Counted from the stretch's first letter, positions 1-18,757 are shown. The stretch is 34,898 nt of DNA from Stramenopiles sp. TOSAG23-6 (GCA_900128565.1 LT635948.1:1-34898); one strand, 5' to 3'. The notes: a model not told the origin generated them from the sequence alone. A program made the numbers and translations.

Positions 1-42
1 TTTTTAATTTTTTTTTCGCCCGGAATTTTGTCCCAAACCATT

Positions 43-84
<42 letters not shown>

Positions 85-99
85 TTTTTCACAATACAT
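1..99 (+). other. Non-canonical intron, 3' part only (ends TTTTTTCACAATACAT)
   Basis: Family 3' motif sits directly before G-TAT-CAA-ATT (MYQIT). A noisy copy of the internal motif is present (cgcccggaattttgtcccaaac). Confidence 0.7.
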
Positions 100-1281
100 G
101 TATCAAATTACATCTGATCATTTATGTGAATTATTAATTGATTTACATAAACGAGGTATTAAACTCACCATTCTTCTCTCTGCAACAATTTACGATGAAA
201 CGGATCATGTACGTTTTCATGATTTATTTCAATTTATAATTTATAATTTGTATTTTGTTTTCATACGAAATTTTGTACCTAACAAATATTTTTTCAAAAT
301 ATTTTTTTACTATACATGAAATGGCTACTTCTTGCTACGAGAAACTCGTTTCGGTTGGAATCGTTCTTCATTCTGCATGGCAATATGATCGGTATATGTA
401 CAACCATCAAAAGTTTTGGATTGTAGATGGAAAAGAACTCGTATATTATCTATAATGAATGTTTTACCTAATTGTTTTACTATGAAAATTTTGTACCTAA
501 CGAATTTTTTTATTATCCAAAAAAAAAAAAAAAAANATTTTTCACAATACTTGGATTAAGTACAGGAAATTGGTCTGATTCTGATTACCCAGGAGGCGCT
601 GCAACATTTACTCCACATTCTGATGATCCAAGTGCTTGGCGTCGATCGAACAGAGATTTTACATTGAAACTCACAGGAAATCCTCAAGTTATTAAAGTAT
701 ACCAAAATGTTATTACTGGGGATGTATGTTTTTCATCATGAATTTTTATTTTTTTTTTTCGTATGAAATTTTGTACCTAAGCAAAAAAACAAAAACAAAA
801 AAGATTTTTTTTTTTTAAATGTTTATTTTCATCATGAATGTTGAATTTATTTTTTTACGATGAAAACATTTTATAACAAACTCAATATTTGTGTAAACTA
901 TTTTTCAAAATACATCTGGCAAATGCAACGGTGTGGCAAAACAAAGCAGGCAGTGGATCATGTGCAACACTTGGTTGTAGTTATGTAACTGGAAGACGTG
1001 GTAAATGCCAATGTGATTCAAAATGTGTTCAATATAATAATTGTTGTTCTGATCATGCAAAGATATGTAATGCATCACCCTCCACAAAACCTCATCATAG
1101 ACCTCCAACGCCATCATCTGGAGGTAGTAATTCTTGTGCAACTTTGGGTTGTTATTATGTTCGTGGAAGAAAAGGTAAATGTACATGTGATCATCGATGT
1201 GAAAAAAAAGGAACATGTTGCTCTGATTATCAATCTGTGTGTTTATCCAACAACCCCGATGAATATTTTGCAATTGCATAA
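100..1281 (+). CDS. Phospholipase D (HKD) superfamily protein with two C-terminal somatomedin-B-like domains; 5'-partial; exons 100-208, 318-440, 553-723, 916-1281
   Basis: The spliced frame reads (M)YQIT...DETDH|EMATSC...HQKFWIVDGKEL|GLSTGNWS...RDF...VITGD|LANATVWQ, giving an HxKxxxxD...GN PLD motif. It then has two Cys-rich SC...C.CD..C.....CCSD....C repeats of SMB type. Confidence 0.8.
209..317 (+). other. Non-canonical intron GT...CAT, 109 nt, phase 0
   Basis: CAT|GTACGTTTTCAT...TACGAAATTTTGTACCTAAC...TTTTACTATACAT|GAA; joins ORF frames 98 and 255. Confidence 0.85.
441..552 (+). other. Non-canonical intron GT...CTT, 112 nt, phase 0
   Basis: CTC|GTATATT...TTTTGTACCTAAC...TTTTTCACAATACTT|GGA; restores HQKFWIVDGKELGLSTGNW. 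The nearest downstream AGs (559-560, 564-565) are out of frame. Confidence 0.85.
724..915 (+). other. Non-canonical intron GT...CAT, 192 nt, apparently two tandem family units
   Basis: GAT|GTATGTTTTTCATCATGAAT...TTTTTCAAAATACAT|CTG; contains an in-frame stop (739-741), so it must be removed. Confidence 0.8.
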
Positions 1282-1507
1282 AAGGATTTAAATTTATCAA
1301 AATGTGTAAAACAATTTTGAGAAAAAAAAATAAAAGTTTATTGAAAACGTTTCAATTATCTTTTTATAAACGTTTCCATTGTCTTCTTTAACTGTAGATA
1401 CAACATTTGTACTCAAGGGTAGTAGAACTTGTCCACTTACTGACTTCAGATGACATGTTTTGTCACGCAGTTGAGATTCAGTCACATACTCCACTGTGAC
1501 TTTGACC

Positions 1508-1555
1508 CACTGGTAACGCATCCATCAGCGCCACTTGATGGATGCGTTACCAGTG
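1508..1555. repeat. Perfect 20-bp inverted repeat with 8-nt loop spanning the F-box gene stop codon
   Basis: CACTGGTAACGCATCCATCA (1508-1527), loop gcgccact, TGATGGATGCGTTACCAGTG (1536-1555). Confidence 0.95.
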
Positions 1556-2586
1556 ATTGCGGACATCGCAAGTTTTCGATTAGCCTCCCAGTTCATATTG
1601 ACACCGTTGAGTTTGTCACCTAAACGGTTACCCAAGAGCTTGAGTTTGTCATAGTCCCAGTCATTGTCAATATCAAAGTCTGAGTTAGGCCGCTCACCGG
1701 CTTCCAAAAGTTTGACACTCAACACAAATTGCGCGACCTCTCCGACAGCTCCGACAACCTTACCAAAAGGATGGCGACCGGTGTCAGTAAATTTGTAATT
1801 GCAATGCAACATGAAAGTTGCATTTTGGCCGTTTGCAAGGTTGCATTTTTGGTACCAGTTTTCCATCGGCCTAGAGGAAGGATCACCAACACTTGAGAGG
1901 CAATCTATCTCTTGACCCCGATTCACAAAATGAGTGAACACGGCAATTTTGCGCCGCTGGGAATCAACACAGAACAGCCGAAACGACATAAAACCAATAG
2001 GCTGAGCACAGCAATCGCGTTCCGCAGGCCAATATCCCTGGACAGGACTAGCAACGTCAGTAAGTTCTAGGCTTCTAGCAAAAACACAAAGTTCGTTATT
2101 TATTTCATCTTCTAGAAATGTTTCCTCGTCATTATGTGGCTGTGCCCGAGCACGCACTCGGCACCCCTTGGCTAACACATGTTTGGTCCGGAAGATAGTT
2201 TTCTTCAATTCTTTGCCGTCAAAGTCACACTGTGACAGCTCCAAGAGAAAGCCGACGTTGTCTGGATTGATGCAAACTTGCGATGGCGAGAACTGGATGA
2301 CAGGCTCGACATAGCGACTTTTCGTGCATGCGGAAGCGTCCAGATCCAGTTGAAAGAGGCGCTGGTAGAGCAACCTTGGAGACAAATCGTCGCCCAGGAA
2401 AGGAGAGAGCCACATGGAGCGTGCGCTGTTGAGCAGCTGTGAAGCCGCCCAGACCTCGTCGAGCAGCTGCTTCTTTTCGCGTAGGGAAAGAAGGTAGCTG
2501 CACACAGATTCAGTGCAGAGGAGCTCGGGTGGACAGAGGAAGGAAATGGCCACGACAACGACATCTTCGGGGAGTAACAGAAGCAT
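1525..2586 (-). CDS. F-box-like protein, 353 aa, intronless, GC-rich
   Basis: Long ORF. N-terminal LLLLPEDVVVVAISFLCPPELLCTESVC fits the F-box pattern (LP.E....I..FL...EL.....VC). The rest is not recognised. Confidence 0.6.
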   Translation of the reverse strand: MLLLLPEDVVVVAISFLCPPELLCTESVCSYLLSLREKKQLLDEVWAASQLLNSARSMWLSPFLGDDLSPRLLYQRLFQLDLDASACTKSRYVEPVIQFSPSQVCINPDNVGFLLELSQCDFDGKELKKTIFRTKHVLAKGCRVRARAQPHNDEETFLEDEINNELCVFARSLELTDVASPVQGYWPAERDCCAQPIGFMSFRLFCVDSQRRKIAVFTHFVNRGQEIDCLSSVGDPSSRPMENWYQKCNLANGQNATFMLHCNYKFTDTGRHPFGKVVGAVGEVAQFVLSVKLLEAGERPNSDFDIDNDWDYDKLKLLGNRLGDKLNGVNMNWEANRKLAMSAITGNASIKWR

Positions 2587-2993
2587 GCTGCGTGAACATA
2601 TATTACTTCACTCTCTCCACTTACTAGTTTTTCCAAGAACTTTTGCTTCTTATCTATGCGTGGCCTATCGTGCGCGAGCGAAACAATTCATGAAAAAAAA
2701 ACACCGATCGGCGATTTTGGTCCAACCAATTTTGGTACGGAAATCCGTACTGGCATACAACTTGGTATGAAAAACAAAAATGTAAAAATAATGGATGAAA
2801 AATATCCCAATGAAAGATGCGCACAGCATCAAATCATTTGAAAAAAAATCAGAATGGTCAACACGAAAAAAAAACTGTGATTATTTTTTTATTATATCAA
2901 ATTACCTTTACTTACTTATTGAATAAATTTATTTTTCTAGTTAGTAAAAACCATTCAATTATTTTTCATTATTCTTTATACTATCAAAATGTA

Positions 2994-4778
2994 TTAGGTA
3001 GCAACACGAGTACCATATCTTCGTAAGGTTGGGTTGGTATGATAAATACACAAAGGTGGAATGCCTACTTTTCGCCAATCTAATTTTTCTGTATTCATCC
3101 ATTTGTTTTCAAAACCTAAGGAATCTTTAAGAACTTTGAGGTAACTTCCACCTCTAAATGTAACAACATCTCCTAGATCAGTTTGAATTTCTTCTAAAAA
3201 TAATTTTAATTTTGCACTCAATTTACAAACAATTTGGGCGAATCGTATAAATGTTGGTACACCAAATGTATCCAATGATGAAATGAAACAATTTTGCTCT
3301 TCCAATGTTTTCATTGTGTTTTCATCTATTTCAAGTCCATTTCTTTGCTCAGGATTTGACTGAATACTACGCATGTATTGTGAAAAAATATTTTACAAAA
3401 AAATTGTTAGGTACGGAATTTCGTACGAAAAAAAATATTTGAAATTTATCATGGAAACGTACATCATACGAAGAAGAGTTTCTCTAGATGAAATCATCTC
3501 GCTGGCAATACCCAAGTTTGTAACAGATTCGCCCAAATATGGCGCAAGTTCAGGATTTGAATACTTGACAAGGTATGTCAACTTTTGTATCATTGGAACT
3601 TCAAGTGTTTTCCATATTTGTTCAATTGCTGATTGATACGAAGGTTTAACTCGTGCTCGATTTGGAGTTTTCATTCCTGTTTTTGTTGTTGTTGACTTTT
3701 TTGATGAATTTTCTTGAGATGAATCATTTACTGTTTCATCATTATCTATCATTTGATCATTAAAATCTCTATTATGTGTACTATCTACTATTTCAAGTTT
3801 GGTATTAGATTTATTTCCAACTACGTTTTCATCCACCAACGTTTGAGTTTTATCTTTCCTTTTTTCAAAATTACTTCGCCATGGTTTTGCCTTTGCTATT
3901 CTTTCTTCTTCAGTTAATGTACTAAGAAATGTCCCAAGAGTTCGACTTTTGCGAACCTTTCTAAATACTAACGGTCGATGAGTGACAGCAGTTCCAAGAG
4001 CTCGAGTGCGTATGTGATTTGCAAAACCTGCAGTTTGTTGTTTCCATCGATTTTCTACTTCATCAGGAGGAGGCATAACTATTGGCTTTGAAGTAGGCCA
4101 TCGATGCCGTACAGTTTTTAAATGTTCATTTGCATTAAATGGTGCTGCATCATTATTACTGTCTTTCGAATCTATATTACTTTCATAATGCATCTCTTCT
4201 AATACATCTGCTTCAATAACATCAAGTCGAAGTTTTCTTAATTCAACTTGAAGTATTGTTTCACTTCTTTTTCGGTTTGCTGTAGTATGAAAAACACCTT
4301 TACGATCCATAGCTTTGTGTACTTCAGAGCATTTACGCCGTAAAGCTTCAACTATTAGTCCAATTCTTGAACGAACACGTTGAGCTGCATCTTCTCTCTG
4401 TGTATCATTCATACCTTTTACAAACTTATAAATAGAATGTTCACCAATAAGGGTTGGATTTGTCTCTGCTGGATCTCGTGAAGGTCCCATATTGGCCATG
4501 GCATCCTCAAGTTCTTCCAATACTTGCTTAACTACAGGAGGATCGATGATATTCTCTTTGATTTCTTTTTCAACGATTACTTCTTGTATTGGCTTTCCAG
4601 CTGCTTTCTGTCGTGCTTGGAGTACCTTTTTCTTCGGGTCTGTGACTGGTGTTAATGTAAAAGCGTTTCGAGTGTCTAGTAATCTTGTTTTCGGAACTTC
4701 GGCTTCGTACACTTTCTTATACCTTAACTCACTTGCAAGCGAACGCTTTTTTCTCCGTCGCGGTTGAGAGTAGGACAT
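2994..4778 (-). CDS. Uncharacterised protein with CCDC87-like C-terminus, about 564 aa; exons 4778-3463, 3372-2994
   Basis: Two ORFs are joined by a family intron (LLRMM|RSIQ). IEQIWKTLEVPMIQKLTYLVKYS and LGDVVTFRGGSYL resemble CCDC87-family motifs as I recall them (unverified). Confidence 0.6.
3373..3462 (-). other. Non-canonical intron GT...CAT, 90 nt, phase 2
   Basis: ATG AT|GTACGTTTCCAT...CGTACGAAATTCCGTACCTAAC...TTTTTTCACAATACAT|G CGT; contains an in-frame TAA. Confidence 0.85.
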
Positions 4779-5055
4779 GATTAAATATTTTTAAGAAATG
4801 TTTCACAATAGTCTCTACACAGTGAGCTACAAATTTTCAAGTCACTTTTACCTTTGTTATTAGGTGGTAAGTCCTGTTGGTCAAATTTCACTTGTAACGT
4901 TTTGTAACTGCTGCTTTGACCACGCTATATTTGCTACTCAAGTAAGCTTCTAGACTAGAGTCTCGTATATACGTATACTTATATAGACTAGATAACTAAA
5001 CCAAGTAGACTATTTTTGTGTTTATGTACTTTTAAAATACAATAGTAGTATTTCG

Positions 5056-6671
5056 ATGAATTTCAAATACAATGACCTCAAACGAGGTACAGGTGTAACA
5101 GTATCAATTCAAACTGACAAAAACTTGTTTGAATTCCTGGTTGAGCTCAATTTAGATTGTTATTTTGATAAGATAGTTGAGAACTTTAGTGTTTTCACTG
5201 TTGAAGAATTTCAAAATGCTTTACGTCGTCAAAACGATGATTCAACTTTGAAACATTTCATAAAGAAAAAAATTCACCGTATTAAAATGTTCAGGGCTAT
5301 AAAACAATACAGTCAAATAAACCCCATCAGACCAAACAAAACTAAATGCCATTTACAAGTGAATACAAACATAAACACAAAGACTAAAAATTTATTAAAG
5401 ATACCCAAAGTATCTAATTCCCAACACATCAAAATTGGCCAATTTGTCTATTGGTGTGAAAAACGATCAACAGAAATAATATGCCACATTGGCCGTGTAG
5501 AAAGTTTTCTTCCTGTATTCAATCCAACAGCTGCACGAAAAAATATACAAGTCATTTTGACATGTTTCAAAGAAAAAATAAAAGATTCTGGAATTATTTT
5601 CAAAACCGATCAAATTATAACAAAAGCTACAGATAAATTACATATAATAGATAAAAGTCTGACAAGCGTTTATAATAAAGAACTAAATTCTTGGAAATTA
5701 AAAAATAGGAATGTAGCTCTATTACTTCCCGGTATAAAACCTAAAAGTGTACCTCATGCTGATCTTAAAAAGAAAAAGGCAATGAATCATGATGTTTTTG
5801 TGTACTGTGTTTTAGTATTTGCTACAGAAAAGATTCATTTTGAAAATGTCCAAGAAAGTTTTTTATGTACACTATCAAAATATATATCAAGACCAATACA
5901 GATAAAATATATATCTTCATATGATCAAACAAATACTAAAATATCAAGTAGTCCAAAAGAGGCATTGACACGTGTCGATGTTATTATAACAATGACAGCT
6001 ATAGCAAATTGTGGATTACAATGTGTTGAAAAGAATAATGATACATGTACGTTTTCAAAACGTTTTCAAAATTGAATCTTTATATAAATTGTTTTTTGTG
6101 TCAAAATGTGTACCTAACAAAAAAATTGAATTTACCTTTTTTTTTTTTTTTTCACAATACATCAATTGCTCAAATGCTATATATTACACACCAACACATG
6201 TGTAACGGTGCTTCATTGAATGATACTCTTTTAAAGAAATGTAATTTAAATTTAATTAATATATCAGATTTAAGTGCATTAGCCATAGACTATCAACCTC
6301 AGAAATTGAAAAATCGTATAAATAATAAGAATAATAATGCAAATTTACTTGAAGAAGGAAATTTTGTAGCATTAAAAAATCCAAACTTTTCAGATCTATT
6401 AGAAAGCCCAGAAAAACCTTTATGGTTTGTTTTTCGTGTAATGCAAATTATTTCTAGTAAATTTGGTCAACTATATCATTTAAATATGTTTAAAGAAGTG
6501 CAACTTGGAAGTGGATACTTTATACCCACTAATGAATGGTTGGTACAAACATCCACTAATATGAGAAATATTGATTTGCATTTTGATTTGAAAACGAATT
6601 TATGGAAATGTAAATTACTTGTTCGTGATGAATTATTTAGAAATAGTATGGAATATAAAATTTCTTGTTGA
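5056..6671 (+). CDS. Hypothetical protein with N-terminal SAM-like domain, about 499 aa; exons 5056-6046, 6163-6671
   Basis: LFEFLVELNLDCYFDKI...IKKKIHRIKMFRAI is SAM-like. ORFs 5056 and 6045 join through a family intron (NNDT-S-IAQML). Confidence 0.65.
6047..6162 (+). other. Non-canonical intron GT...CAT, 116 nt, phase 1
   Basis: ACA T|GTACGTTTTCAA...TGTGTACCTAAC...TTTTTCACAATACAT|CA ATT GCT. Confidence 0.8.
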
Positions 6672-6849
6672 TTATTTGATTTTGTGAGATAATTTTTTTT
6701 TGTAGTATTGTAGTATTCGTATTCGAAAGAAAGAATTAAACAGCCAGTCAGTCGACAATACTGGCTCGACGAGTCGGACAAACTTTACTGGTCAACTTTT
6801 TTTGAGTGTGTATAATAAGAGTTTTAAAATAACTTTTGTTCTCCACGAA

Positions 6850-8341
6850 ATGATGAATCCTTTGTCAGCAATGATGACGTCTTTAAAGGCAGGTAATGCA
6901 GGCGAATCGCGCCATACACCCTTGATAGAAAGTGCAAAAATGTTTAAAGAGAAGGGCAATGCTTTATACAAAGAAAAAAAGTTTAAAGAAGCAAATGCTG
7001 CTTATTCGGAAGGAACACGGGTGCTGTCGGCATCTTTGGATCCACTTATGAATGGCCTTGCTGGCGAGGAATATGCACCAGTAGAAGCATATAAACTCAT
7101 GAAGATTATTGGAAGCAATCGTGCCGCTGCATTGATGGAAGTTTGTAAGCAGGATGATTCTAAAGTGTTGGTGTATGGTCTGGACATGCAAAAACAAAGG
7201 CTAAAGCTCTTGGAGATTGGAGCGAGCGTTACCCCAAGTGGAGTGAAATCTGCTTCAAAAGGATCAAAGCCTGATCCTAAGGATGTGGAAGATTGGACAG
7301 CAGTACGATGCAGACTCGAAATGTTGAACTTAGCAGTTCATCTTGTTGACGATGAAAATCGAAGAGTACCGCTGAGTCAAGCAGACCTTACAAAGTTGAA
7401 GCAACATAACAAGGATAAGGCAAAATATCCTAACCCACCAAAGCGAATAGATGATGGTCCAGTGTTTGCACGTATACGTAAAAAGTTGACAAAGAGAAGA
7501 AGTGTCATTGTAAAAATGATTGAAACTATACGAGAGAAATATTCCAAAGAAGTGAAAGAATACCCCCGAGAGCTTCTTTATCCCCCTGTTATAATTACGC
7601 CAATAGTTATTCATCCTTCTGCAAAAACCATTAAGCCTAGTAGAGTTTCACGTTCACCTTTAGATGAAATGATGTCTGATAAATTTTATTGTGGAAAACC
7701 GAAGAATAATTTCAGCACTATAAAAGCCATATACATTGACGATCATTCATTCAGTGAAATTGAAATACCTGCTTCAAGATGGATTGAAGTAATGAAAGCA
7801 CATGAGAAACCATCTGTACCTGAATGTTTAGGTGTAGAATTAGCCGTTCTCTTTGATAAACCATTTAGTGGTGATAACCAGTTTGGAACATATCTAATGA
7901 TTGATAAAATATCTGGCTTTGCTCCAATGAAGTATCAAATGAGACCAGGTGTACGTTTTCATTTCAATATTTTACCNAANTTTTTTTTNGNTACGAAATT
8001 TTGTACCTAACGATTTTTTTTTGAAATATTTTTTCACAATACGGCCTTGCACTGTTGTTCGAAGAAATGGTACAGACTATACTAATGAGGAACATATGCA
8101 ACTTCATAATTTCATATATAATCTCTTGGATGAGTATGCGGATGGCGCAGTAGACCCAGAGCGTGATCTTACACCTGCGATATGGAAATCTTTGGTTGAT
8201 AGTAATCAAAAATATAGGGAAGACAATGCTGAAGAAATTGCAGAAGAAGAAGCGTTTTTTAGACATTTAAATCCTCATTTATATCCACCAGATGAGGCAT
8301 CCATTGCTGCAGGCAAGAAATATTACACTCCGTCGATGTAA
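6850..8341 (+). CDS. TPR-domain protein, about 465 aa; exons 6850-7950, 8045-8341
   Basis: AKMFKEKGNALYKEKKFKEANAAYSEG...SNRAAA is a co-chaperone-type TPR. First ATG is at 6850. The spliced junction reads GFAPMKYQMRPG|PCTVVRRNG. Confidence 0.75.
7951..8044 (+). other. Non-canonical intron GT...CGG, 94 nt, phase 0
   Basis: GGT|GTACGTTTTCAT...TACGAAATTTTGTACCTAAC...TTTTTCACAATACGG|CCT. Confidence 0.8.
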
Positions 8342-8446
8342 GATATTTTTATATACAACTTCAAACATATAAAAGTTATAATTCTTTTATTCTTTATTGA
8401 TGTTTTTTTTAGACATTTTCAAATTTTCTTCATCGTCCAAAAAATT

Positions 8447-9349
8447 TTAGTGTTGTTTATTAGACTCTGCTGAAGTTTTAAAAAGATTTTCTAATTTTTC
8501 ATTTCGTTTTAACCATGGATGATTGGGGGATACACTGTTTAGTTGCTTTATATAACCTTGAATAACAGAATCACCCTTTCCATTCCACTGCGCACAAGTA
8601 ATAATATTTACAAGTGTATCGCCATCTTTAGCGTTCATCCCAAGAGCTTCTTGGAAGGCTTGGTCTGCAGCTTCATAATTACTTAAATGAATATTTGCAA
8701 CGCCAAGACCATTTAAGAGAAGTACGGTTGGTCCATATTTATCAATAAGTTCCTGGTAAATGTATGACGCTTCCTGGTATTTAGCTCCACCTGTAATCAA
8801 GTATAACCATGACATGCAAAGTTGAGTAAGAGTACTGTCGTCGTCGACTTGTTGCAGAACGAGAAGTTGTTTCTGTGCAAGATCAATTCTTGACATTGCA
8901 ATGTGTATTTGTAAAGTAAGTGACATTTGCTCCATATCTGAATCATCACGGAGAGTAGCAAGGGCTAATGGTAACTCTCCCTCGCGGTAAAAAACAGTCG
9001 CAGCGATAGTTTGAGCCATTGACATTGCTTTTCCTGGTGCGACATCTGCTTTCAAAAGTTCTTTCAACGATTCCACGACTTTAGCGCGAGATGTATCACT
9101 AGAATCAGATTCGTATTCTGCTAAAAGTTTTACGGCAGCAATTGGAGGTTCGATTTCGTCTCCGTCCAACTCTGTTTCATCGAGAACATAACCTGGGTTT
9201 CCCATTCCAATGTAACACCTGTAGACATACGCATCACGCTCAGTCACAACTTCTTCTGAAGATGGGCGAATTCCACCAGCTTCTCGTATACCTAACTGAA
9301 AATTTCCTAACCAGAAATAGTTCTTTAGCATAAATAACTCATCTGCCAT
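8447..9349 (-). CDS. COPE: Coatomer subunit epsilon (COPI), 300 aa, intronless
   Basis: MADELFMLKNYFWLGNFQ, ERDAYVYRCYI, RIDLAQKQL...DDDSTLTQL..SW, KYQEASYIYQEL, LLLNG, PNHPW are hallmark epsilon-COP/Sec28 motifs. Start ATG is at 9349. Confidence 0.93.
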   Translation of the reverse strand: MADELFMLKNYFWLGNFQLGIREAGGIRPSSEEVVTERDAYVYRCYIGMGNPGYVLDETELDGDEIEPPIAAVKLLAEYESDSSDTSRAKVVESLKELLKADVAPGKAMSMAQTIAATVFYREGELPLALATLRDDSDMEQMSLTLQIHIAMSRIDLAQKQLLVLQQVDDDSTLTQLCMSWLYLITGGAKYQEASYIYQELIDKYGPTVLLLNGLGVANIHLSNYEAADQAFQEALGMNAKDGDTLVNIITCAQWNGKGDSVIQGYIKQLNSVSPNHPWLKRNEKLENLFKTSAESNKQH

Positions 9350-9467
9350 GGTGTGAATCAAAATTACGGAGAAGAATTTTTCAAGTCTCGTTTTTTTGTC
9401 TCGAGACGAGGTGAAAAATAAAATCGTCAAAACGAATAAATCTCAAATGAAATTCTCGCAATTGAAT

Positions 9468-9540
9468 GCCACGTGGCGCGATATTGTAAAATTGCAAGTG
9501 ACACGAGGTAGGACCTGGTTGTTACCCTACATGCGCATGC
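9468..9540. promoter_or_regulatory. Candidate cis-elements in the divergent COPE/Sel1 promoter: GCCACGTGGC and CATGCGCATG palindromes
   Basis: Perfect 10-bp palindromes at 9468-9477 (G/E-box type) and 9530-9539 in a 254-nt head-to-head spacer. Confidence 0.35.
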
Positions 9541-9603
9541 TATAAATTATAAACACTGCTGCTGCTAAATTGGTATACAAAAGCCGCAAATCGAGGCTAC
9601 ATC

Positions 9604-11010
9604 ATGGAAGCAGAGTATGAACTTGGTTTACGTTATTATACGGGTCATGGTGTCACTCAATGTGATAAAACTGCTGCTGAATTGTTTAGAAAAGCTGCGA
9701 ATCAAGGCAATAGCAGTGCACAAAATCATCTTGGTTATTGCTATGAACATGGTCATGGTGTTGCTGAAGATAAAGAAGAAGCTTTCAAGTGGTATTCTAA
9801 ATCTGCAAATGCGAAGAAAAGTGAAGCGTCTGGATTATTCCTGTTTAAAGATCTGAAAAGTAAAAATGGTTCTTCCATTGGTACGACGCTTACAAGTCTT
9901 TCTCGCGCGACTCCTCGTCGCATGATACCTAATCCAACAAATGCACTTTTCAAAATTGGAAGTGTTACCCGTATTCGCAGTTTCTACCAACGAGTCCTTA
10001 TTTTTTTCATAACATATAACCCTGATAAAGTTATTAATGTTCCTAGAATTGTCGAAAAATATGCAGGTTGTGAGAAAGAACTATTTGAGGAACTCTCTGA
10101 GCGATATCCTGAGTCTTTACCAGAAGTATTAAATCCCATACCTAATTCCTTACGTAATATAAATGAAGGACAATATAATCTTGGTTATTGCTATGCTAAT
10201 GGTGTTGGTGTTGCTGAAGATAAAGAAAAAGCTTTCAAGTGGTATACTAAATCTGCTCATTCCCGTTGTAGTGATGCACAAAACAGTCTTGGTTACTGCT
10301 ATGAACATGGTCATGTTGTTGATGAAGATAAAGAAGAAGCTTTCAAGTGGTATTCTAAATCTGCAAATGCAAGTAATAGTGCAGGACAAAATAATCTTGG
10401 TTATTGCTATGATAATGGTGTTGGTGTTGCTGAAGATAAAGAAGAAGCTTTCAAGTGGTATTCTAAATCTGCTGATTCCGGTGATAGTGAAGGTCAAAAT
10501 AATCTTGGTAACTGCTATTATTACGGTGAAGGTGTTGCCGAAGACAAAAAAGAAGCTTTCAAGTGGTATACTCAATCTGCTGCTGCTGGTAATAGTGAAG
10601 GTCAAATTAATCTTGGTGACTGCTATAATAATGGTTATGGTGTTGAACAAGATTATAAAGAAGCTTTCAACTGGTATGCTAAATGTGCAAATGCAGGTAA
10701 TATGATTGGACAGTGTTATGTTGGTGATTGCTATTATAATGGTTATGGTGTCACTAAAAATTATAAAAGAGGAGCAAAGTGGATCAAGAAAGCAAAAAAG
10801 CAGATAACGGATTCAACAGATGAGGGAATAAAAGACTTGATAATGAAATATGACAACTCAAAATGTGTGAATTGTGGTAAAGTTGACAAAATTACTAAAT
10901 TATTCTTTTGTACTGGGTGTAAATGTGTGTGGTATTGTTCAAAGAAGTGTCAAAAAGCACATTGGAGTATACACAAAAAACCGTGTCGCAACTCAAAAAG
11001 TGTAAATTGA
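9604..11010 (+). CDS. Sel1-like repeat protein with C-terminal MYND zinc finger, 468 aa
   Basis: 36-aa repeats AQNxLGYCYxxGxGVAEDKEEAFKWYSKSA. C-terminal CVNC...CTGCKCVWYCSKKCQKAHWSIHKKPC is a zf-MYND. Confidence 0.92.
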   Translation: MEAEYELGLRYYTGHGVTQCDKTAAELFRKAANQGNSSAQNHLGYCYEHGHGVAEDKEEAFKWYSKSANAKKSEASGLFLFKDLKSKNGSSIGTTLTSLSRATPRRMIPNPTNALFKIGSVTRIRSFYQRVLIFFITYNPDKVINVPRIVEKYAGCEKELFEELSERYPESLPEVLNPIPNSLRNINEGQYNLGYCYANGVGVAEDKEKAFKWYTKSAHSRCSDAQNSLGYCYEHGHVVDEDKEEAFKWYSKSANASNSAGQNNLGYCYDNGVGVAEDKEEAFKWYSKSADSGDSEGQNNLGNCYYYGEGVAEDKKEAFKWYTQSAAAGNSEGQINLGDCYNNGYGVEQDYKEAFNWYAKCANAGNMIGQCYVGDCYYNGYGVTKNYKRGAKWIKKAKKQITDSTDEGIKDLIMKYDNSKCVNCGKVDKITKLFFCTGCKCVWYCSKKCQKAHWSIHKKPCRNSKSVN

Positions 11011-11232
11011 TGAAAATAAATTATTAAATTGGTTGAAAATAATATGATGAATTGAATTTGTATGAAAAAAATAGAATATTGTCAAATTTACTTAATTAGT
11101 GAGCGCAAACCACTTTTGATGTAGAGGCTTTTATTGGTTTATTTTCGAAATTAGAAACTGATCAAAGTAATAAACGAGATCATCAAAATTTTAAAAATTA
11201 TTTTTTTTATATTTTTTTTTATATTTTTTTCG

Positions 11233-12132
11233 TCATTTTCGATGTAATTTAAAAACTTTAATTTTGTCTATGGAAAAATCAGGATGAACATTTTCTCCAG
11301 AAATATTCCATCTGAAATATTTCCGTAAAGCATTAAATAGAATCTCATCTGTTTCATTTGATCTAGTTTGATGGGCTAATAAAATTACCGCGTCTGGATT
11401 AATATCGGTCAATTGTATTAATACATTAGTCAAAGGCTTCACCAAATCTGCAAGCCATACTACATCTGCACCAAGGATAATATCATATACTTTTAAATCA
11501 TTTGGAGTGAACCAATCTAAAGCCTCTACATGAATATTAGCCATTTGAGAAGCACTAGAATTACGTTTTAAAGCTTCACTGGCATTACGGTTTAGTGTTT
11601 CAAGACAATATGGAAGATCAGTCAAAGTAACAGAAGCAGCGCCTAATAAAGCAGCAGCAATACCTGAAAGACCTGTTCCAGCACCTAATTCTAAAACGTT
11701 CTTTCCAGTGATAGAGTTACAATTGGATGAGTTGATGGGACAGACAGAAGACTCGGGTGACCACACATGTTCTAAATATTTTGCGAGAACAATACTACCA
11801 TCCCACACAAATCGACCAGTGTCACCGTCTTGTTGCTTTTTAGTGTCTCTAATGACTGGTGCAGGATGTACTATTATTGGTTTACCCCGTACCGAAAACT
11901 CTCCTGCAGTAAAGTTAAAATTAAACTCTTGTCCCTTTAATAAAAGTTGTTTGCCACTTGCGACTATAGGTGTTGCAGTACGAATTAAACTCCACTCTTG
12001 AGTGTCTGGTTGCCATTCTCGTACACTACCATCAGAAGACGTATGTATACGTTTCTTACCAACCTGACTGTGGCTTATATTTGACGTATAAAATAAATAT
12101 AAAGTATATGAGAATAATAGCCTCGAATACAT
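11233..12132 (-). CDS. METTL21/Methyltransf_16-type protein lysine methyltransferase, about 299 aa (start uncertain)
   Basis: TGRFVWDGSIVLAKYL, VLELGAGTGLSGI, VTLTDL, LDW, DIILGADVVW. First in-frame ATG is at 12132. Confidence 0.85.
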   Translation of the reverse strand: MYSRLLFSYTLYLFYTSNISHSQVGKKRIHTSSDGSVREWQPDTQEWSLIRTATPIVASGKQLLLKGQEFNFNFTAGEFSVRGKPIIVHPAPVIRDTKKQQDGDTGRFVWDGSIVLAKYLEHVWSPESSVCPINSSNCNSITGKNVLELGAGTGLSGIAAALLGAASVTLTDLPYCLETLNRNASEALKRNSSASQMANIHVEALDWFTPNDLKVYDIILGADVVWLADLVKPLTNVLIQLTDINPDAVILLAHQTRSNETDEILFNALRKYFRWNISGENVHPDFSIDKIKVFKLHRK

Positions 12133-12294
12133 AAACAACCCTTTAAAAATGCAGACGAAAGTATACAAAATGAATAAATAGGTCCTATATTGACTTGTGA
12201 AAAAGACACTTCGAGATAATATATTTCTGTCAAACGCAAACTCAAACTGAAAAAAAAAAAACACGAAATAAAAAATTCAAATCAGCTTTTTTGA

Positions 12295-12338
12295 CCAATC
12301 AAATCAGTCATCGCTCTTTTCGCGCGGAACATGCGCAT
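12295..12338. promoter_or_regulatory. Candidate cis-elements in a divergent promoter: CCAAT, TTTTCGCGCG, CATGCGCAT
   Basis: A cluster of CCAAT-box, E2F-like and TGCGCA motifs between the head-to-head methyltransferase and carrier genes. Confidence 0.3.
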
Positions 12339-12513
12339 CAAGATGATCAAACTTCTTGAATATTGAAGGAGTAAAGTAAAAGGGACATAAATTTAGGTCC
12401 GCAATTGTAAGCCACATTCACCAGTACTTTTCAATAGCAAGCAGAATGAGACTATTTTAGTTTTTTAATAATAGTATTAGAAATAGTAGAGGCTTTACTC
12501 TTTAGAATACATA

Positions 12514-13591
12514 ATGGTTGCCTCTCCACAACCTGGACCTGCAGAAGCAACACTTTCCCGTACAATTCAAGGTTTCTTCAAAGTTGAGTCTGAAGTTAAA
12601 GGAAAAGTCAATGAATTTTCTCCGCCTCCAATGATGCGTTTTCTAATGGCTGGTGCTGGAGCGGGAGCTATAACAAAAACATGTGTTGCGCCATTAGAAC
12701 GATTAAAAATCCTATTTCAGGTCCAGGCAATGCAAAGTGGTGCTCCAAAGTATCAGGGAATACCACATGCAACGAGAACAATTTTTAAGGAGGAAGGTGT
12801 TATTGGATTTTGGCGTGGTAATGGTGCAAATGTGTTGCGTGTAATACCAGTATATGCTCTAAAGTTCGGTTTCAATGATACATTTAAAGGTTTAGTCCGA
12901 AAGGATAAACAAACAAAACTTAATTTTGTTCAATTAGTTACTGCTGGTTCCATGGCAGGACTTTTTCAGACTTGTATAACATATCCTCTAGAATTAGTTC
13001 GCACTCGTCTTACTCTCGGTGTTGGTTTAGGTCTACGATATAATGGTATTGTTGATTGTTTGATGAAGACATTACGTGGTGAAGGTATTACGGGACTGTA
13101 CAAAGGTCTTTCGCCTACTATATTATCTGGTGTACCTTATGTTGGTTTACAAATGTCATTTTATGAATTAAATACTCGTTTTGCAAGGGAACATTTTAGT
13201 CTTGAATCTGGAACAATGACTAAGCTAATATGTGGTGCTTCAGCGGGTGTTGCTGCGCAAACGTTGACGTATGCAGGTGATACAATACGTAGACGAATGC
13301 AAACAGATGGAGCATGTGGAAAACCTCGAACGTATGGTGGAATGTTTGTACGTTTTCATCATGAATTTTCAATTTTTTTTTTAGTACGAAATTTTGTACC
13401 TAACGATTTTTTTTTACTACAAAAATATTTTTTCACAAGTACATGATTGCTTTAGACAAATATTGAAAAAAGAAGGTGCAATTGGTTTTTACAAAGGTGT
13501 TCATGTTAATTGTATTAGAGCTATCCCTGGTGCTGCAATCCAATTTGTTGCATATGATGCATTGAAGTCTCTTTTTGGAGCAACCAAATAA
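12514..13591 (+). CDS. Mitochondrial carrier (SLC25 family; CoA/adenine-nucleotide carrier-like), about 326 aa; exons 12514-13347, 13445-13591
   Basis: Three carrier repeats: APLERLKILFQ, YPLELVRTRL, YAGDTIRRRMQ; also GFWRGNGANVLR. Splicing gives YGGMF|DCFRQILKKEG..GFYKG. Confidence 0.92.
13348..13444 (+). other. Non-canonical intron GT...CAT, 97 nt, phase 0
   Basis: TTT|GTACGTTTTCAT...GTACGAAATTTTGTACCTAAC...TTTTTCACAAGTACAT|GAT TGC. Using the AG at 13438-13439 with this donor causes a frameshift and early stop. Confidence 0.85.
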
Positions 13592-13820
13592 TAGAAAGCT
13601 ATACTAAGTAAATACTATATAGTAATAATAATAATAATGGAAACAAAATATAATATTTTGAAAAATCAATTTACATAGAAATATTCCGTATTAAAAGTAT
13701 ATTTTGAATGGGTACAAATAAAACATCCATACCAAAACATTTAATAATTTAAAACGTATATTTTTAATTTATGCTGATATCAATTTGGCTATTTATTTTT
13801 AAATGCTTTTCATTACAATT

Positions 13821-15731
13821 TTATTCTGATGTTAATTCGGACATTAATTTTGGAATAGTTTTATCAATAGCATCTTCCACAGCTTTCAATTGATCTGGTC
13901 GAAGAGATCGAAAAGAAGCTCTCCAATCATCAATATTTGAAACATGTTTTCGAAATTCATCAAGATTTGGAAAATCTCCTGTAGGTATTCTATATTTTTT
14001 TGAGACTTCAAAAAAGACATTTGCCATATCATTTACTAAATCTTCTCTTGCTTTTACTTTTCCAAAAAATAATGGCATTTGTGACTTTAAATAAGATATT
14101 AATAATATATGAACTTTAACTTCACGCCATCGTTTTGCAAGGTACGAAACTTTTCTAATTAGATTATTTCTTGGTAAATCATATAATTCATCTAATAAAG
14201 TTGCTTTATCTCGTTTGAATAATAATTTATTCGTAATATTACCTTGTAAAGGTTTATTCCAAAACGAACCTAAATATATCCGTGTAACTTCTGGGGTTTT
14301 CAATACTTTACCTAAAGCCCAGAGTAAAGCACCGTATACACGCAATAATTCACATCCAGATATTTGATCAGCTTTATTAAGTACAACTCGAATTTTGTTT
14401 GCATTTGATGAAGTAGCTAGGATTGCACCTTCAAACTCATCACTAATATCTAATTTATTTGCATCAAAAAACAAAAGTAATCGATCCACGCGTGAAGCAA
14501 ACCATTTAACAACTGCATTGAAATCATATGATCGACCTATAGTTTGTTTTTCACCAGATAAAATTCCAGGTGAATCAATGTATACAAGAAAAATATGTTT
14601 TCAGTTTGAAATTTGTTAGCACAAAATAATTTCGAAATCGAATAATTAGTTGAACAATATACATTTAAAAAATATATATTTCAACAATATAATTGAAATT
14701 CAAAATGAGTGATAAATACATACATCAATGTATATCTATCTAAAATACTATTTCCACTAATAATAGGTATTTCTATTCCTTCAAACCTTTCTAAAAAACT
14801 ACTTCCAAATCTAATCAAACTTGCAAAAGGTCGATCTGGTTGAACTGTAACTGTATGACCTGGTACAGACCTTGCTTCATTACAACCATGACCACCACGC
14901 ATAATAGCTGACCATTTGTCTGTTGTTGGTTCCGGACCAATACGCATGTATTGTGAAAAAATATTTTTTTTTAACAAAAAAGATTTGTTAGGTACAAAAT
15001 ATTTTTTATGAAAAAAAATAAATTTGAATTTTAATTTTGAAAATGTACATATTTGGATAATCTCCAACAATTGACCTGATAAAAGAGGTTTTACCTACAG
15101 AATATTGACCAAGTAAAAGTACCATAGGTTTTGCATCAAAATCAGCAGAACGTAATAGGGGCTGTACCATCCTATCGTAGAGGTAGATTTCCTCCATTGG
15201 CTTTATATGATTAAAATATAATTTTTTGAGTTGGTTACTTAGTAAACGAAATTCTTCATCAGACTTTGAAGTTTTAATATCCAAATGAGTATCAGAAGGA
15301 TTGTCCGCGATTCCTGTAAATATGAAAGTATCTGATGGCTGTAAAGAATCAGGAGAATTATTGACTAACTTTTGTAATTCAACACTTTTCTGGATTTGTT
15401 TTGTTTTTTCTTCTAATTGCTGATCCTTTTGTTGTAGACTAGAACGTAACTGAGATATAATAGCATTTTGCTCCTCAATTTTCTTCTCTGCGTTTATACG
15501 AGAAGAATTATCTTTATGACGCAAATCATTTATCATTGAAATCTTATGGAGATACTCAGCACGTTGACGTTGAAGACTTCTACGCATTCCAAGTCTGATC
15601 TTTAGAGTATCTGGCACACCTCGACCAAGAAGAACATCACAGACTTCGTTGGCAAACACAGAAGGATTTTCAGCTTCATCAACTTCTAAATTGTCATCAA
15701 CTTTTAAATTGTCACTGTTTGACATGTTCAT
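13821..15731 (-). CDS. EHD/RME-1 family dynamin-like ATPase, about 553 aa; exons 15731-15049, 14945-14724, 14577-13821
   Basis: DFDAKPMVLLLGQYSVGKTSFI, M|RIGPEPTTD, LI|DSPGILSGEKQ, GRSYDF, LFFDANKLDISDEF, IRVVLNKAD, RVYGALLWALGKV..TPEV.RIYLGSFW, GDFP. Confidence 0.93.
14578..14723 (-). other. Non-canonical intron GT...CAT, 146 nt, phase 2 (divergent family member)
   Basis: TTG AT|GTATGTATTT...TTTTGTGCTAAC...TTTTTCTTGTATACAT|T GAT TCA CCT; restores LIDSPG. There is no AG until after the codons for DSPGILSGEKQT. Confidence 0.9.
14946..15048 (-). other. Non-canonical intron GT...CAT, 103 nt, phase 2
   Basis: AAT AT|GTACATTTTC...TTTTGTACCTAAC...TTTTTCACAATACAT|G CGT ATT; restores DYPNMRIGPEPTTD. 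There is no AG in the intron or before the end of the PTT codons. Confidence 0.9.
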
Positions 15732-15955
15732 TTTTGAAATAATGCTACATTGAATTGATTCGAATAACACAGCGTATTGGAACGATTCCAAATAATTGGC
15801 CAATCAGATATTTTGATGATTTTCGTTTTTGACTTCATTTTGAGACTTTTTTTTTTCCACTTTTTTCCACTTTTTTTGAGTTTAGTTTAAAAAAGTTTTT
15901 GCCAAAACATTTTCATTTTATAATACACAAAATAATACAGCTTTTTACAATATAG

Positions 15956-16042: not shown

Positions 16043-16141
16043 TGTTTTTTTAAATGAACTATTTATAAAAAAAAATTAATATAATTTTAAGAAATTTTTA
16101 AAACTCAAAAGTTTTAATCCTAAAATATAAACTACAATTCA

Positions 16142-17449
16142 TTACCAACTTGAATCATTTGAAAAATCAATTGAGAAGTTATAATTCTCATACCTCTCAT
16201 AACCTGGGGCTTTCACATCTATTAGCCATTTCAATACTTCAATCTTACCTTTTTCAGCTGCAATACGACACGTATTTTCATCCCAAGGACAAGGTGGATT
16301 TTGACTTCTCACCCATTTCAATACTTCTAATTGACCATCATAAGCTGCAAAACTACACGTTTCTTCATCCCATGGACAAGGTGGATTTTGACTTCTTACC
16401 CATTTCAATATTTCTAAGTGGCCACCTTCAGCTGCAGCCTCACACGTTTCTTCATCCCATGAGCAAGGTGGATTTTGACTTCTTAACCATTTCAGTATTT
16501 TTAAGTGACCATAAGCTGCTACACGACATGTACCTTCACTCCATGGACAAGGAGGATTTTGACTTCTTAGCCATTTCAATACTTCCAAATGACCATTTAA
16601 AGCTGCTCTATTACATGTACCTTCATACCATGGACAAGGTGGATTTTGGCTTCTTAACCATTTCAATACTTTTAATCGACCATTTTCAGCTGCAACACGA
16701 CACGTTTCTTCATCCCATGGACAAGGTGGATTTTGGCTTCTTAACCATTTCAATACTTCCAAGTGACCACTTGCAGCTGCATTTTCACAAGTATATTTAT
16801 TCCACGGACAAGGTGGATTTTGACTTCTTACCCATTTCAATACTTCTAAGTGGCCATTTTCAGATGCTTCATAACATGTACTTTCATCCCATGGACAAGG
16901 TGGATTTTGACTTCTAACCCATTTCAATACTTTTAAGTGGCCATACTCAGCTGCTTTACGACACGTTTCTTCATCCCATGGACAAGGTGGATTTTGACTT
17001 CTTACCCATTTCAATACTGCTAAGTGACATAATGCAGCTGCTAAATGACATGTGCCTTCATTCCAAGGACAAGGTGGATTTTGACTTCTTACCCATTGTA
17101 ATGCTTCTAAGTGACCACCATAAGCTGCATCACGGCACGTATTTTCATCCCAAGGACAAGGTGGATTTTGACTTCTTACCCATTTTAATACTTCTAATTC
17201 ACCATACTCAGCTGCTACACGACATGTCCATTCATCCCAAGGACAAGGTGGATTTTGACTTCTTAACCATTTCAATACTTTTAAGTGACCCTTTGTAGCT
17301 GCATTTCTACATGTATTTTCATCCCAAGGACAAGGTGGATTTTGACTTCTCACCCATTTCAATACTTCTAATTGACCATCATAAGCTGCAAAACTACACG
17401 TTTCTTCATCCCATGGACAAGGTGGATTTTGACTTCTTACCCATTTCAA
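16142..17449 (-). CDS. Ankyrin-like tandem repeat protein (CPW-type), 5'-truncated at the palindrome axis; 14 units of 29 aa (87 nt)
   Basis: Repeats SQNPPCPWxxxTCxxAAxxGHLEVLKWxR. The ORF-track N-terminus (MTIISCK...) is only read-through of the opposite arm. Confidence 0.85.
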   Translation of the reverse strand: MKWVRSQNPPCPWDEETCSFAAYDGQLEVLKWVRSQNPPCPWDENTCRNAATKGHLKVLKWLRSQNPPCPWDEWTCRVAAEYGELEVLKWVRSQNPPCPWDENTCRDAAYGGHLEALQWVRSQNPPCPWNEGTCHLAAALCHLAVLKWVRSQNPPCPWDEETCRKAAEYGHLKVLKWVRSQNPPCPWDESTCYEASENGHLEVLKWVRSQNPPCPWNKYTCENAAASGHLEVLKWLRSQNPPCPWDEETCRVAAENGRLKVLKWLRSQNPPCPWYEGTCNRAALNGHLEVLKWLRSQNPPCPWSEGTCRVAAYGHLKILKWLRSQNPPCSWDEETCEAAAEGGHLEILKWVRSQNPPCPWDEETCSFAAYDGQLEVLKWVRSQNPPCPWDENTCRIAAEKGKIEVLKWLIDVKAPGYERYENYNFSIDFSNDSSW

Positions 17450-18757
17450 TTGAAATGGGTAAGAAGTCAAAATCCACCTTGTCCATGGGATGAAGAAACG
17501 TGTAGTTTTGCAGCTTATGATGGTCAATTAGAAGTATTGAAATGGGTGAGAAGTCAAAATCCACCTTGTCCTTGGGATGAAAATACATGTAGAAATGCAG
17601 CTACAAAGGGTCACTTAAAAGTATTGAAATGGTTAAGAAGTCAAAATCCACCTTGTCCTTGGGATGAATGGACATGTCGTGTAGCAGCTGAGTATGGTGA
17701 ATTAGAAGTATTAAAATGGGTAAGAAGTCAAAATCCACCTTGTCCTTGGGATGAAAATACGTGCCGTGATGCAGCTTATGGTGGTCACTTAGAAGCATTA
17801 CAATGGGTAAGAAGTCAAAATCCACCTTGTCCTTGGAATGAAGGCACATGTCATTTAGCAGCTGCATTATGTCACTTAGCAGTATTGAAATGGGTAAGAA
17901 GTCAAAATCCACCTTGTCCATGGGATGAAGAAACGTGTCGTAAAGCAGCTGAGTATGGCCACTTAAAAGTATTGAAATGGGTTAGAAGTCAAAATCCACC
18001 TTGTCCATGGGATGAAAGTACATGTTATGAAGCATCTGAAAATGGCCACTTAGAAGTATTGAAATGGGTAAGAAGTCAAAATCCACCTTGTCCGTGGAAT
18101 AAATATACTTGTGAAAATGCAGCTGCAAGTGGTCACTTGGAAGTATTGAAATGGTTAAGAAGCCAAAATCCACCTTGTCCATGGGATGAAGAAACGTGTC
18201 GTGTTGCAGCTGAAAATGGTCGATTAAAAGTATTGAAATGGTTAAGAAGCCAAAATCCACCTTGTCCATGGTATGAAGGTACATGTAATAGAGCAGCTTT
18301 AAATGGTCATTTGGAAGTATTGAAATGGCTAAGAAGTCAAAATCCTCCTTGTCCATGGAGTGAAGGTACATGTCGTGTAGCAGCTTATGGTCACTTAAAA
18401 ATACTGAAATGGTTAAGAAGTCAAAATCCACCTTGCTCATGGGATGAAGAAACGTGTGAGGCTGCAGCTGAAGGTGGCCACTTAGAAATATTGAAATGGG
18501 TAAGAAGTCAAAATCCACCTTGTCCATGGGATGAAGAAACGTGTAGTTTTGCAGCTTATGATGGTCAATTAGAAGTATTGAAATGGGTGAGAAGTCAAAA
18601 TCCACCTTGTCCTTGGGATGAAAATACGTGTCGTATTGCAGCTGAAAAAGGTAAGATTGAAGTATTGAAATGGCTAATAGATGTGAAAGCCCCAGGTTAT
18701 GAGAGGTATGAGAATTATAACTTCTCAATTGATTTTTCAAATGATTCAAGTTGGTAA
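17450..18757 (+). CDS. Mirror copy: ankyrin-like repeat protein (5'-truncated)
   Basis: Exact reverse complement of 16142-17449. Confidence 0.8.
   Translation: MKWVRSQNPPCPWDEETCSFAAYDGQLEVLKWVRSQNPPCPWDENTCRNAATKGHLKVLKWLRSQNPPCPWDEWTCRVAAEYGELEVLKWVRSQNPPCPWDENTCRDAAYGGHLEALQWVRSQNPPCPWNEGTCHLAAALCHLAVLKWVRSQNPPCPWDEETCRKAAEYGHLKVLKWVRSQNPPCPWDESTCYEASENGHLEVLKWVRSQNPPCPWNKYTCENAAASGHLEVLKWLRSQNPPCPWDEETCRVAAENGRLKVLKWLRSQNPPCPWYEGTCNRAALNGHLEVLKWLRSQNPPCPWSEGTCRVAAYGHLKILKWLRSQNPPCSWDEETCEAAAEGGHLEILKWVRSQNPPCPWDEETCSFAAYDGQLEVLKWVRSQNPPCPWDENTCRIAAEKGKIEVLKWLIDVKAPGYERYENYNFSIDFSNDSSW

Follow-up and report, generated by a model that had tools for sequence, protein, structure and literature searches.

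Ten related inserts without an AG acceptor in genes of a marine stramenopile: candidate introner-derived introns

Gene content and a family of ten inserts

The stretch of DNA analysed here (the window) comprises 34,898 nt of Stramenopiles sp. TOSAG23-6 (GCA_900128565.1 LT635948.1:1-34898) and carries, within protein-coding genes, ten short inserts that are well supported at the DNA level as a family of predicted introns without an AG acceptor. Reverse-complementing positions 1-17449 gives exactly positions 17450-34898, the two 17,449-nt arms being 100% complementary and free of any spacer. As the window is thus a perfect palindrome, its unique sequence amounts to only 17.4 kb, and each intron recurs on the opposite strand at 34899 minus its coordinates. 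Most likely, the palindrome is a chimera of whole-genome amplification or of assembly, rather than biology. The arm is AT-rich and tightly packed with eukaryotic genes, 11 in 17 kb, six of which bear inserts. Besides a PLD-like gene with two somatomedin-B domains, it encodes coatomer epsilon, a Sel1/MYND protein, a lysine methyltransferase, a mitochondrial carrier, an EHD GTPase and a protein with ankyrin repeats; three genes have no Pfam match at or above the gathering score, and one of these three has a weak SAM-like match below it. Exon 1 of the carrier is 100% identical to the database protein eukprot:GSMAST32.ASY1.ANO1.508.1, the next named matches being stramenopile and rhizarian proteins with 57-60% identity. 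By the database label GSMAST32, the organism is a marine stramenopile of the MAST-3 type.

The ten inserts (nine of them complete) were printed from the sequence, which confirmed the coordinates and ends given for them in an earlier annotation of this DNA (the first-pass annotation). In the following list a slash marks the cut, flanks are the dinucleotides before GT and after TAC, and the two registers compared are removal of GT...AT and of AT...AC.

1-99, plus strand: I1, PLD-like gene, truncated by the window end so that only the 3' portion of a family intron is left; final bases ...TTTTTTCACAATACAT; matches positions 29-100 of the nhmmer model (E 6.5e-9)
209-317, plus strand: I2, PLD-like gene, phase 0; cAT/GTACG...GTACCTAAC (275-283)...CTATACAT/g; flanks AT and AT
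441-552, plus strand: I3, PLD-like gene, phase 0, splits the HKD motif HQKFWIVDGKEL/GLSTGN; TC/GTATA...GTACCTAAC (493-501)...CACAATACTT/; flanks TC and TT, Leu in both registers
724-915, plus strand: I4, phase 0, a tandem pair of incomplete family copies (724-813 and 826-914); AT/GTATG...CTAAG...ATAAC...CAAAATACAT/
3373-3462, minus strand: I5, unnamed gene (2994-4778, minus), phase 2; AT/GTACG...GTACCTAAC (3406-3414)...CACAATACAT/; in-frame AG 6 nt downstream
6047-6162, plus strand: I6, unnamed gene (5056-6671), phase 1; no other, frame-keeping GT-AG pair within ±40 nt
7951-8044, plus strand: I7, unnamed gene (6850-8341), phase 0; GT/GTACG...CACAATACGG/; flanks GT and GG, Gly in both registers
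13348-13444, plus strand: I8, mitochondrial carrier gene (12514-13591), phase 0; TT/GTACG...CACAAGTACAT/; flanks TT and AT; registers differ, Phe versus Tyr
14578-14723, minus strand: I9, EHD gene, phase 2, most diverged copy; AT/GTATG...GTGCTAAC (about 14615-14622)...GTATACAT/; precedes IDSPGILSGEKQ
14946-15048, minus strand: I10, EHD gene, phase 2; AT/GTACA...GTACCTAAC (14987-14995)...CACAATACAT/; inside YPNM/RIGPEPTTD
17449..17450, no strand: centre of the perfect inverted duplication, from sequence comparison of both arms; inside the ankyrin-repeat gene

All inserts align to a consensus of ~100 nt, GTACGTTTTC...TACGAAATTTTGTACCTAAC...AAAATATTTTTTCACAATACAT, at a mean column identity of 55%, the donor, branch motif and T-tract being conserved while the remainder has diverged. 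Their likeness nevertheless extends well past the splice signals, for example to the identical 31-nt stretch TACGAAATTTTGTACCTAACGATTTTTTTTT in I7 and I8. A family profile built from eight insert copies and used for an nhmmer search of the 17.4-kb arm recovered exactly ten inserts (E 6e-17 to 6e-5); no intergenic or antisense family copy rose above noise in the same search. Introners are recognised as similar copies in unrelated genes that are alike beyond the splice signals, which is what was found here, with ten copies in six genes and one more on the metagenome contig L003 described below. Every one of the ten lies in the sense orientation of its host gene (one-sided P = 0.001), including three in genes on the minus strand. 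Since nothing would tie an element acting at the DNA level to the transcribed strand, this orientation argues for removal at the RNA level, and it is the best argument for such removal available here.

Pronounced structure was not a property of the family. The inverted ends consist only of GTA...TAC, or of ATGTA...TACAT when the flanking repeat is counted. Fold z-scores of the inserts ranged from -2.07 to +0.87, that is, no significant structure was detected; the intron ends paired with each other in three of six folds, via an end helix of 3-5 A-U-rich pairs. An Rfam scan of the 17.4-kb arm matched no family.

Splice-like signals, reading frame and homology at the junctions

The 5' ends of all nine complete inserts read GTAY (GTACG in five, GTATG in two, GTATA and GTACA in one each), and all nine carry the GTRNGT-like 5' GT donor of U2-type introns. 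The branch region conforms to that type as well (YTRAY 10-50 nt before the 3' end, then a pyrimidine tract): CTAAC is present in eight of the nine, I4 having only CTAAG/ATAAC, at 33-51 nt from the insert end and followed by T-runs. With at most one mismatch, GTACCTAAC occurs 18 times in the window, nine times per palindrome arm, as opposed to 4.1 expected occurrences, and none of 100 shuffles reached 18. Of the nine sites per arm, seven reside in inserts, one is the CTAAG variant in 724-915, and the last, ATACCTAAC in the COPE gene, is fortuitous; in I9, GTGCTAAC takes the place of GTACCTAAC. It is the 3' end that departs from the U2 type. All ten inserts end in TAC plus 2 nt (CAT in eight, CTT and CGG in one each), and at the frame-keeping boundary none of the nine complete ones ends in YAG (CAT in seven, CTT and CGG in the others). 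The first-pass annotation had described these very ends, as well as a CTAAC-type motif in all inserts except the partial one at 1-99, and both descriptions were borne out.

The reading frame leaves little choice of boundary. When the upstream cut was placed before GT, the downstream exon was open throughout only if the 3' cut fell at TAC+2, or at the in-frame equivalent TAC-1, in nine out of nine cases; the remaining 3' registers ran into a stop after 0-44 codons. The chance of such frame agreement is (1/3)^9 = 5e-5. Homologous proteins led to the same boundaries. In the EHD4 structure 7sox_A, chain residues 67, 68 and 69 correspond to residue 227 of exon A (its last full codon), the split Met codon and residue 1 of exon B, respectively, and the first residue of exon C falls on chain residue 135 (Asp of DSPG). 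The conceptually spliced carrier and 119 homologs were aligned with MAFFT (120 rows), and the twelve columns flanking the carrier junction are contiguous. The end of exon 3 of the PLD-like gene matches positions 4-15 of the 28-position PLDc profile, the HKD motif thus being split by the intron at 441-552. Judged by the EHD and carrier homologs, the predicted removed length is fixed at three junctions, without an indel, in agreement with the earlier claim that conserved motifs set the intron lengths, and no AG is found at any boundary that homology permits in these two genes. Taken together, these comparisons support the view that the inserts would have to be removed to restore the catalytic motifs.

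Fixed length does not mean fixed position. The dinucleotides before GT and after TAC are AT and AT in six of nine complete inserts, the others being TC and TT (I3), GT and GG (I7), and TT and AT (I8); including the L003 intron of the family type (L003a, see below), whose flanks are AT and AT as well, the total is seven of ten. AT upstream of the donor is likewise present in seven of ten (six of nine here plus L003a), whereas the frequency of AT in exons is 0.093 (P = 5.6e-6). Owing to this 2-nt flanking repeat, removal of GT...AT, TG...CA or AT...AC would result in identical mRNA in most cases. The removed interval is therefore fixed only to within 2 nt, and the boundaries are not as rigid as the first-pass annotation had implied; an AG end is obtained in no allowed register. 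At I3 and I7 the registers are synonymous (Leu and Gly, respectively), and only at I8 do they differ at the protein level: GT...AT yields Phe, as in 14 of the 119 carrier homologs, whereas AT...AC yields Tyr, which occurs in none (W 54, L 15, M 14, F 14, I 10, V 4, G 2; n=119). Two other ways of drawing the boundary were rejected. A cut at CACAA/, with TACAT kept in the exon, would add two residues in YPNM-RIGPEPTTD, which is contradicted by the comparison with EHD4, and a 3-nt duplication of ATG is true of only 4-5 of the ten. Like the palindrome and the single sense-oriented repeat family, the 2-nt repeat had been absent from the first-pass annotation.

That annotation had found no canonical GT-AG intron in the window, and it had not noted that two inserts have in-frame GT-AG alternatives. 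No in-frame, stop-free GT-AG pair exists within ±40 nt of I6, I9 or I10. I5, in a gene without known homologs, has an in-frame alternative that may be used instead; it starts at the unchanged GT and ends at an AG 6 nt downstream, by which two codons are removed. I8 has one with GT at +4 and AG at -5. The latter is used by the existing carrier model, P0001, which thereby gains VLH, while extra residues at this place are found in 0 of 119 homologs. The existing EHD model, P0242 (552 aa), translates into both introns and loses VGKTSFIRSIVGDYPN (P-loop region) and IDSPGILSGEKQTIG (DxxG region, DSPG); in addition, it skips VSYLAKRWREVKVHILLISYLK within exon C. The existing models, forced to GT-AG, failed to recognise the family introns.

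RNA-library, protein and metagenome sequences

Contigs from two RNA-library runs of one seawater sample, in which 5-7% of the sampled words were present, were placed on 7992-17449. Per run, 726 and 774 contigs matched this region, and they piled up on the segments carrying the intron motifs, with a summed depth of ~925-4865 compared with 0-321 in other bins. The intron family is very numerous in this seawater sample. Apparent joints within contigs (for example, 8024>13374) were discarded, being cross-matches among intron copies, not splicing. Queries with carrier exon 1 and EHD exon C found no transcript-derived protein spanning a junction; the only protein matches more than 73% identical to them were the two existing gene models.

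The pattern GTACCTAAC-N10-40-TTTTCACAATAC was searched for in collections of viral, metagenome and genome contigs. It had 0 matches in viral contigs and three in metagenome contigs, of which only that on contig L003 was real; L001 and L002 were chance matches, as was L004, from a bacterial genome and the sole match among genome contigs. Two introns were recognised on L003:

L003 2475-2578, minus strand: L003a, family-type intron, AT/GTATG...CACAATACAT/
L003 409-536, plus strand: L003b, intron with the family donor GTACGT, branch motif GTACCTAAT and a canonical TTCACAG acceptor

The 498-codon frame around L003b is kept only with the cut /GTACGT...TTCACAG/, the TAC+2 rule leading to a stop after seven codons; its acceptor TTCACAG compares with TTCACAATACAT, the 3' block of the family. 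The lineage thus appears to cut directly before GTACGT, and it appears to use AG acceptors beside the family type. With one family-type and one apparently canonical GT-AG intron on L003, and with 17.4 kb of unique sequence in the window, the earlier suggestion that every intron, possibly genome-wide, lacks AG is not supported. In the middle of the 3.2-kb contig L003, at about 2270-2330, telomere-like CCCTAA and TTAGGG units in opposite orientations lie just past the stop of the intron-bearing gene.

Some further features of the arm were recorded on their own account. The C-terminal exon of the PLD-like gene (916-1278) encodes its two somatomedin-B domains (E 5e-15), which are unusual partners of an HKD phospholipase D fold. 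At 1508-1555, ~230 nt beyond the stop (1281) of this gene, a long and perfect hairpin containing GC (CACTGGTAACGCATCCATCA...TGATGGATGCGTTACCAGTG, stem ~20 bp) overlaps the 3' end of the convergent minus-strand gene at 1525-2586. The open reading frame of the latter comprises 353 codons without an intron or a Pfam match, and its GC content is ~40-43% per kb window, compared with ~28-35% nearby; it could be a recent acquisition or belong to a different class of genes. The ankyrin-repeat gene (16142-17449, minus), which is cut off at the palindrome centre, is very regular, with internal repeats ~82% identical and units of ~29 residues, each with ...LKWxRSQNPPCPWDE.TC....

A probable spliceosomal reading, its alternatives and known systems

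The first-pass annotation had proposed a U2-type spliceosome with relaxed recognition of the 3' splice site. Since the inserts are copies of one repeat family, a mobile element that would bring its own ends takes the place of the relaxed spliceosome in the interpretation: probably, the inserts are spliceosomal introns derived from introners and have a YAU acceptor. They would descend from a short (~95-nt) mobile introner-like family in a stramenopile, each copy bringing its own donor (/GTAYGT), branch site ((G)TACCTAAC), T-tract and fixed 3' block (TTTTTCACAATAC plus 2 nt). In the pre-mRNA, a U2-type spliceosome would recognise GTAYGT and CTAAC as usual and remove the insert, the second step cutting 2 nt past the invariant UAC. 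The simplest account of AT before GT and at the intron end would be a 2-nt target-site duplication resulting from insertion, and splicing out the element together with one copy of the repeat would restore the original coding sequence. The likeliest register, judging by I8 and by analogy with L003b, places the cuts before GT and after CAU, which would make the acceptor Y-A-U, not Y-A-G. Of the earlier U2-type reading, the intron-like donor, branch motif and T-tract were retained; the exact acceptor rule was not, GT...AT and AT...AC being equivalent in six of nine inserts.

As to how such a 3' site might be found, the first CAT after the branch motif coincides with the cut site in six of seven CAT-ending introns with CTAAC, and in L003a. 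I9 is an exception to this, and I3 and I7 contain no CAT; a plain scan for CAU is therefore insufficient. It may be speculated that GUA at the 5' end, by pairing with the UAC just upstream of the 3' end, acts as a ruler for the 3' site (AUGUA with UACAU if the flanking repeat takes part). The wider proposition, that a large share of the genes in this lineage of abundant uncultured marine stramenopiles have acquired members of an introner family and that their major spliceosome finds the 3' cut via GUA/UAC pairing and accepts Y-A-U alongside AG acceptors, is doubtful and put forward tentatively.

Several observations weigh against a spliceosomal, introner-derived origin with a YAU acceptor, or against parts of it. 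No autonomous parent element was seen in the 17.4-kb arm, and the terminal inverted repeat is just 3-5 nt long. The preferred register is based on one informative junction (I8) and on the analogy with L003b, and in this register the acceptor ends of I3 (TT) and I7 (GG) are not of the AT type. Between branch motif and 3' end, only one AG occurs in 390 nt, compared with ~10 expected from composition, which could mean that the machinery would still take AG as an acceptor if it met one; shared descent of the copies equally explains this avoidance. In the two RNA-library runs, no contig spans the junction of I8, I9 or I10 (exon depth 2-3). Contigs also cover the intergenic region 12089-12487, and one contig, at 14693-14845, is colinear with the DNA over the exon/intron border of I9, with 0 differences. 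The library therefore contains DNA or unspliced RNA and is uninformative on splicing; the check proposed by the first-pass annotation, RNA reads across the junctions, has so far provided neither support nor refutation.

The most serious alternative, although unlikely, keeps the same introns and places them in the AT...AC register, with cuts 2 nt before GTAYG and right after TAC, by U2-type or minor-type AT-AC splicing. The mRNA would be identical in six of nine inserts (seven of ten with L003a) and the encoded residue unchanged at I3 and I7, and the TAC that is invariant in all ten would represent a classical YAC end. A at +1 and C at -1 are a known compatible pair of intron termini, and Blastocystis is a related stramenopile. 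In excerpts of PMC10639083, 253 putative minor introns are given for Blastocystis, 77% of them AT-AC. What speaks against this register is I8, where it would produce TT...AC termini and a Tyr that no homolog has, and the inconstancy of its 5' ends (AT in six, TC, GT and TT in the others). A 2-nt slide makes AT-AC termini possible in six of nine, the remaining three being TC-AC, GT-AC and TT-AC. L003b, moreover, points to a cut directly before GTACGT. The U12-type consensus consists of the donor RTATCCTT and, 10-20 nt upstream of the 3' end, the branch site TCCTTAAC; neither is matched by the inserts, with (AT)GTACGTTTTC in the donor region and a branch-like motif 33-51 nt from the end.

Excision from RNA could also be non-spliceosomal, or partly spliceosomal, and guided by pairing of the ends, as has been proposed for the nonconventional introns of euglenozoans, which according to passages in PMC12621601 have short direct repeats at their flanks and pairing ends and are possibly derived from miniature inverted-repeat transposable elements (MITEs). 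The inserts do have short direct flanking repeats and complementary ends (AUGUA...UACAU), which pair in half of the six folds. However, for a spliceosome-independent route the conserved, perfect U1/U6-type donor and the CTAAC branch motif would be superfluous, an end helix of 3-5 mostly A-U pairs is short, and the z-scores indicate that none of the inserts is strongly structured. This route is highly unlikely.

No more credible is the notion that the inserts are not removed from RNA at all, being either recent miniature-transposon insertions that kill the genes or sequences excised from DNA in another nuclear state, like internal eliminated sequences (IES). It draws on the repeat family with its 2-nt flanking repeat and short inverted ends, on the colinear RNA-library contig over an exon/intron border, and on the lack of a spliced transcript among the RNA-library contigs. 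Against it stand the sense orientation of all ten copies, with none intergenic or antisense, for which neither insertion into nor excision from DNA offers a reason, the preservation of donor, branch motif and T-tract while the rest diverged, and the flanking exons, which are intact and in frame in nine of nine. Six of 11 genes in 17 kb would be dead, those for EHD and the carrier among them. Flanks of AT, not TA, together with the sense orientation, also set the inserts apart from ciliate-type IES. Ordinary GT-AG splicing at other boundaries, for which the canonical sites used by P0001 and P0242 and the in-frame options at I5 and I8 could be cited, can practically be dismissed, as homology already contradicts it: P0242 would forfeit its P-loop and DxxG motifs relative to EHD4, the VLH of P0001 is at odds with 119 of 119 homologs, and I6, I9 and I10 offer no usable pair within ±40 nt.

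Full-text searches of the literature found no description of such introns in MAST-3 or other stramenopiles. Of two MAST genome papers searched by term, one contains "splice" 0 times and "intron" twice, with one passage on the gene-prediction method (PMC5778133), and the other "splice" once and "intron" 0 times (PMC8163842). If RNA data confirm the reading of the inserts as spliceosomal introns, pervasive non-AG acceptors would be known from a third or fourth independent lineage, which would also be the cleanest case, with a textbook donor and branch site. As only the last intron base departs, it would isolate the question of site choice in the second step of splicing. The departure from AG would also be tied to a mobile intron family, with a bearing on intron gain. 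A pairing ruler, if true, would mean that a mobile element introduced a novel means of defining 3' splice sites, and would explain poor gene prediction on such assemblies. Existing protein models are damaged, EHD losing GTP-binding motifs and the carrier gaining three residues; in such assemblies, the number of genes and the functions deduced for them may hence be biased until intron models are retrained.

Known introns share single traits with this family. Constrained introns of the hemiascomycete type follow the scheme GTATGT ... TACTAAC ... YAG. They resemble the inserts in the near-invariant GTAYGT donor and the CTAAC branch motif, whereas here the acceptor is not YAG, TACCTAAC contains an extra C, and copies are alike outside the signals. 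In U12 introns, the 3' site is seemingly set by position rather than by AG. Minor U12-type AT-AC introns, for example those of Blastocystis in the part of PMC10639083 devoted to them, are approached by sliding in six of nine inserts, but their donor and branch consensus is unmatched and the distance from branch to end is 33-51 nt. The euglenozoan nonconventional introns, as passages in PMC12621601 portray them, resemble the inserts in that short direct repeats at either border obscure where the cut lies, in that the ends are complementary and in that descent from MITEs is suspected; they lack a U1-pairing donor and have strong end pairing, in contrast to the GTAYGT donor, the z-scores of -2.07 to +0.87 and the end helix of at most 5 bp observed here.

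Non-canonical introns of Fritillaria borealis, mostly AG-A(N) according to excerpts of PMC7789003, likewise form a pervasive class with A as the second-to-last base and a variable last base at the 3' end. They occur in an animal and have a non-GT (AG) 5' end, whereas the inserts, in a stramenopile, begin with textbook GTAYGT and depart only in the last base of the acceptor. A MITE origin has reportedly been proposed for the Fritillaria borealis introns. The introner elements of Amoebophrya, also a marine protist, share non-canonical ends and membership in repeat families with direct and inverted repeats; passages in PMC7789003 attribute to them extensive, diverse repeats, stem-loops and little conserved splice-site sequence, while in the inserts donor and branch site remain yeast-like and significant structure is absent. 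Introners in general come closest. In excerpts on Micromonas, Aureococcus and dinoflagellates (PMC12130899, PMC7789003), they are intron families derived from transposons, with many near-identical short copies in unrelated genes and their own splice signals. In parts of PMC12130899, they occur in marine protists including stramenopiles and have a short flanking duplication, removal of the element with one repeat restoring the coding sequence; the families described there were screened for 5' GT, GC, GA or AT and 3' AG or AC. The inserts differ from them in being non-AG in every allowed register, in a terminal inverted repeat of 3-5 nt and in having no autonomous parent within the arm, and resemble them in copy similarity, spread over unrelated genes, self-borne splice signals and a short flanking repeat.

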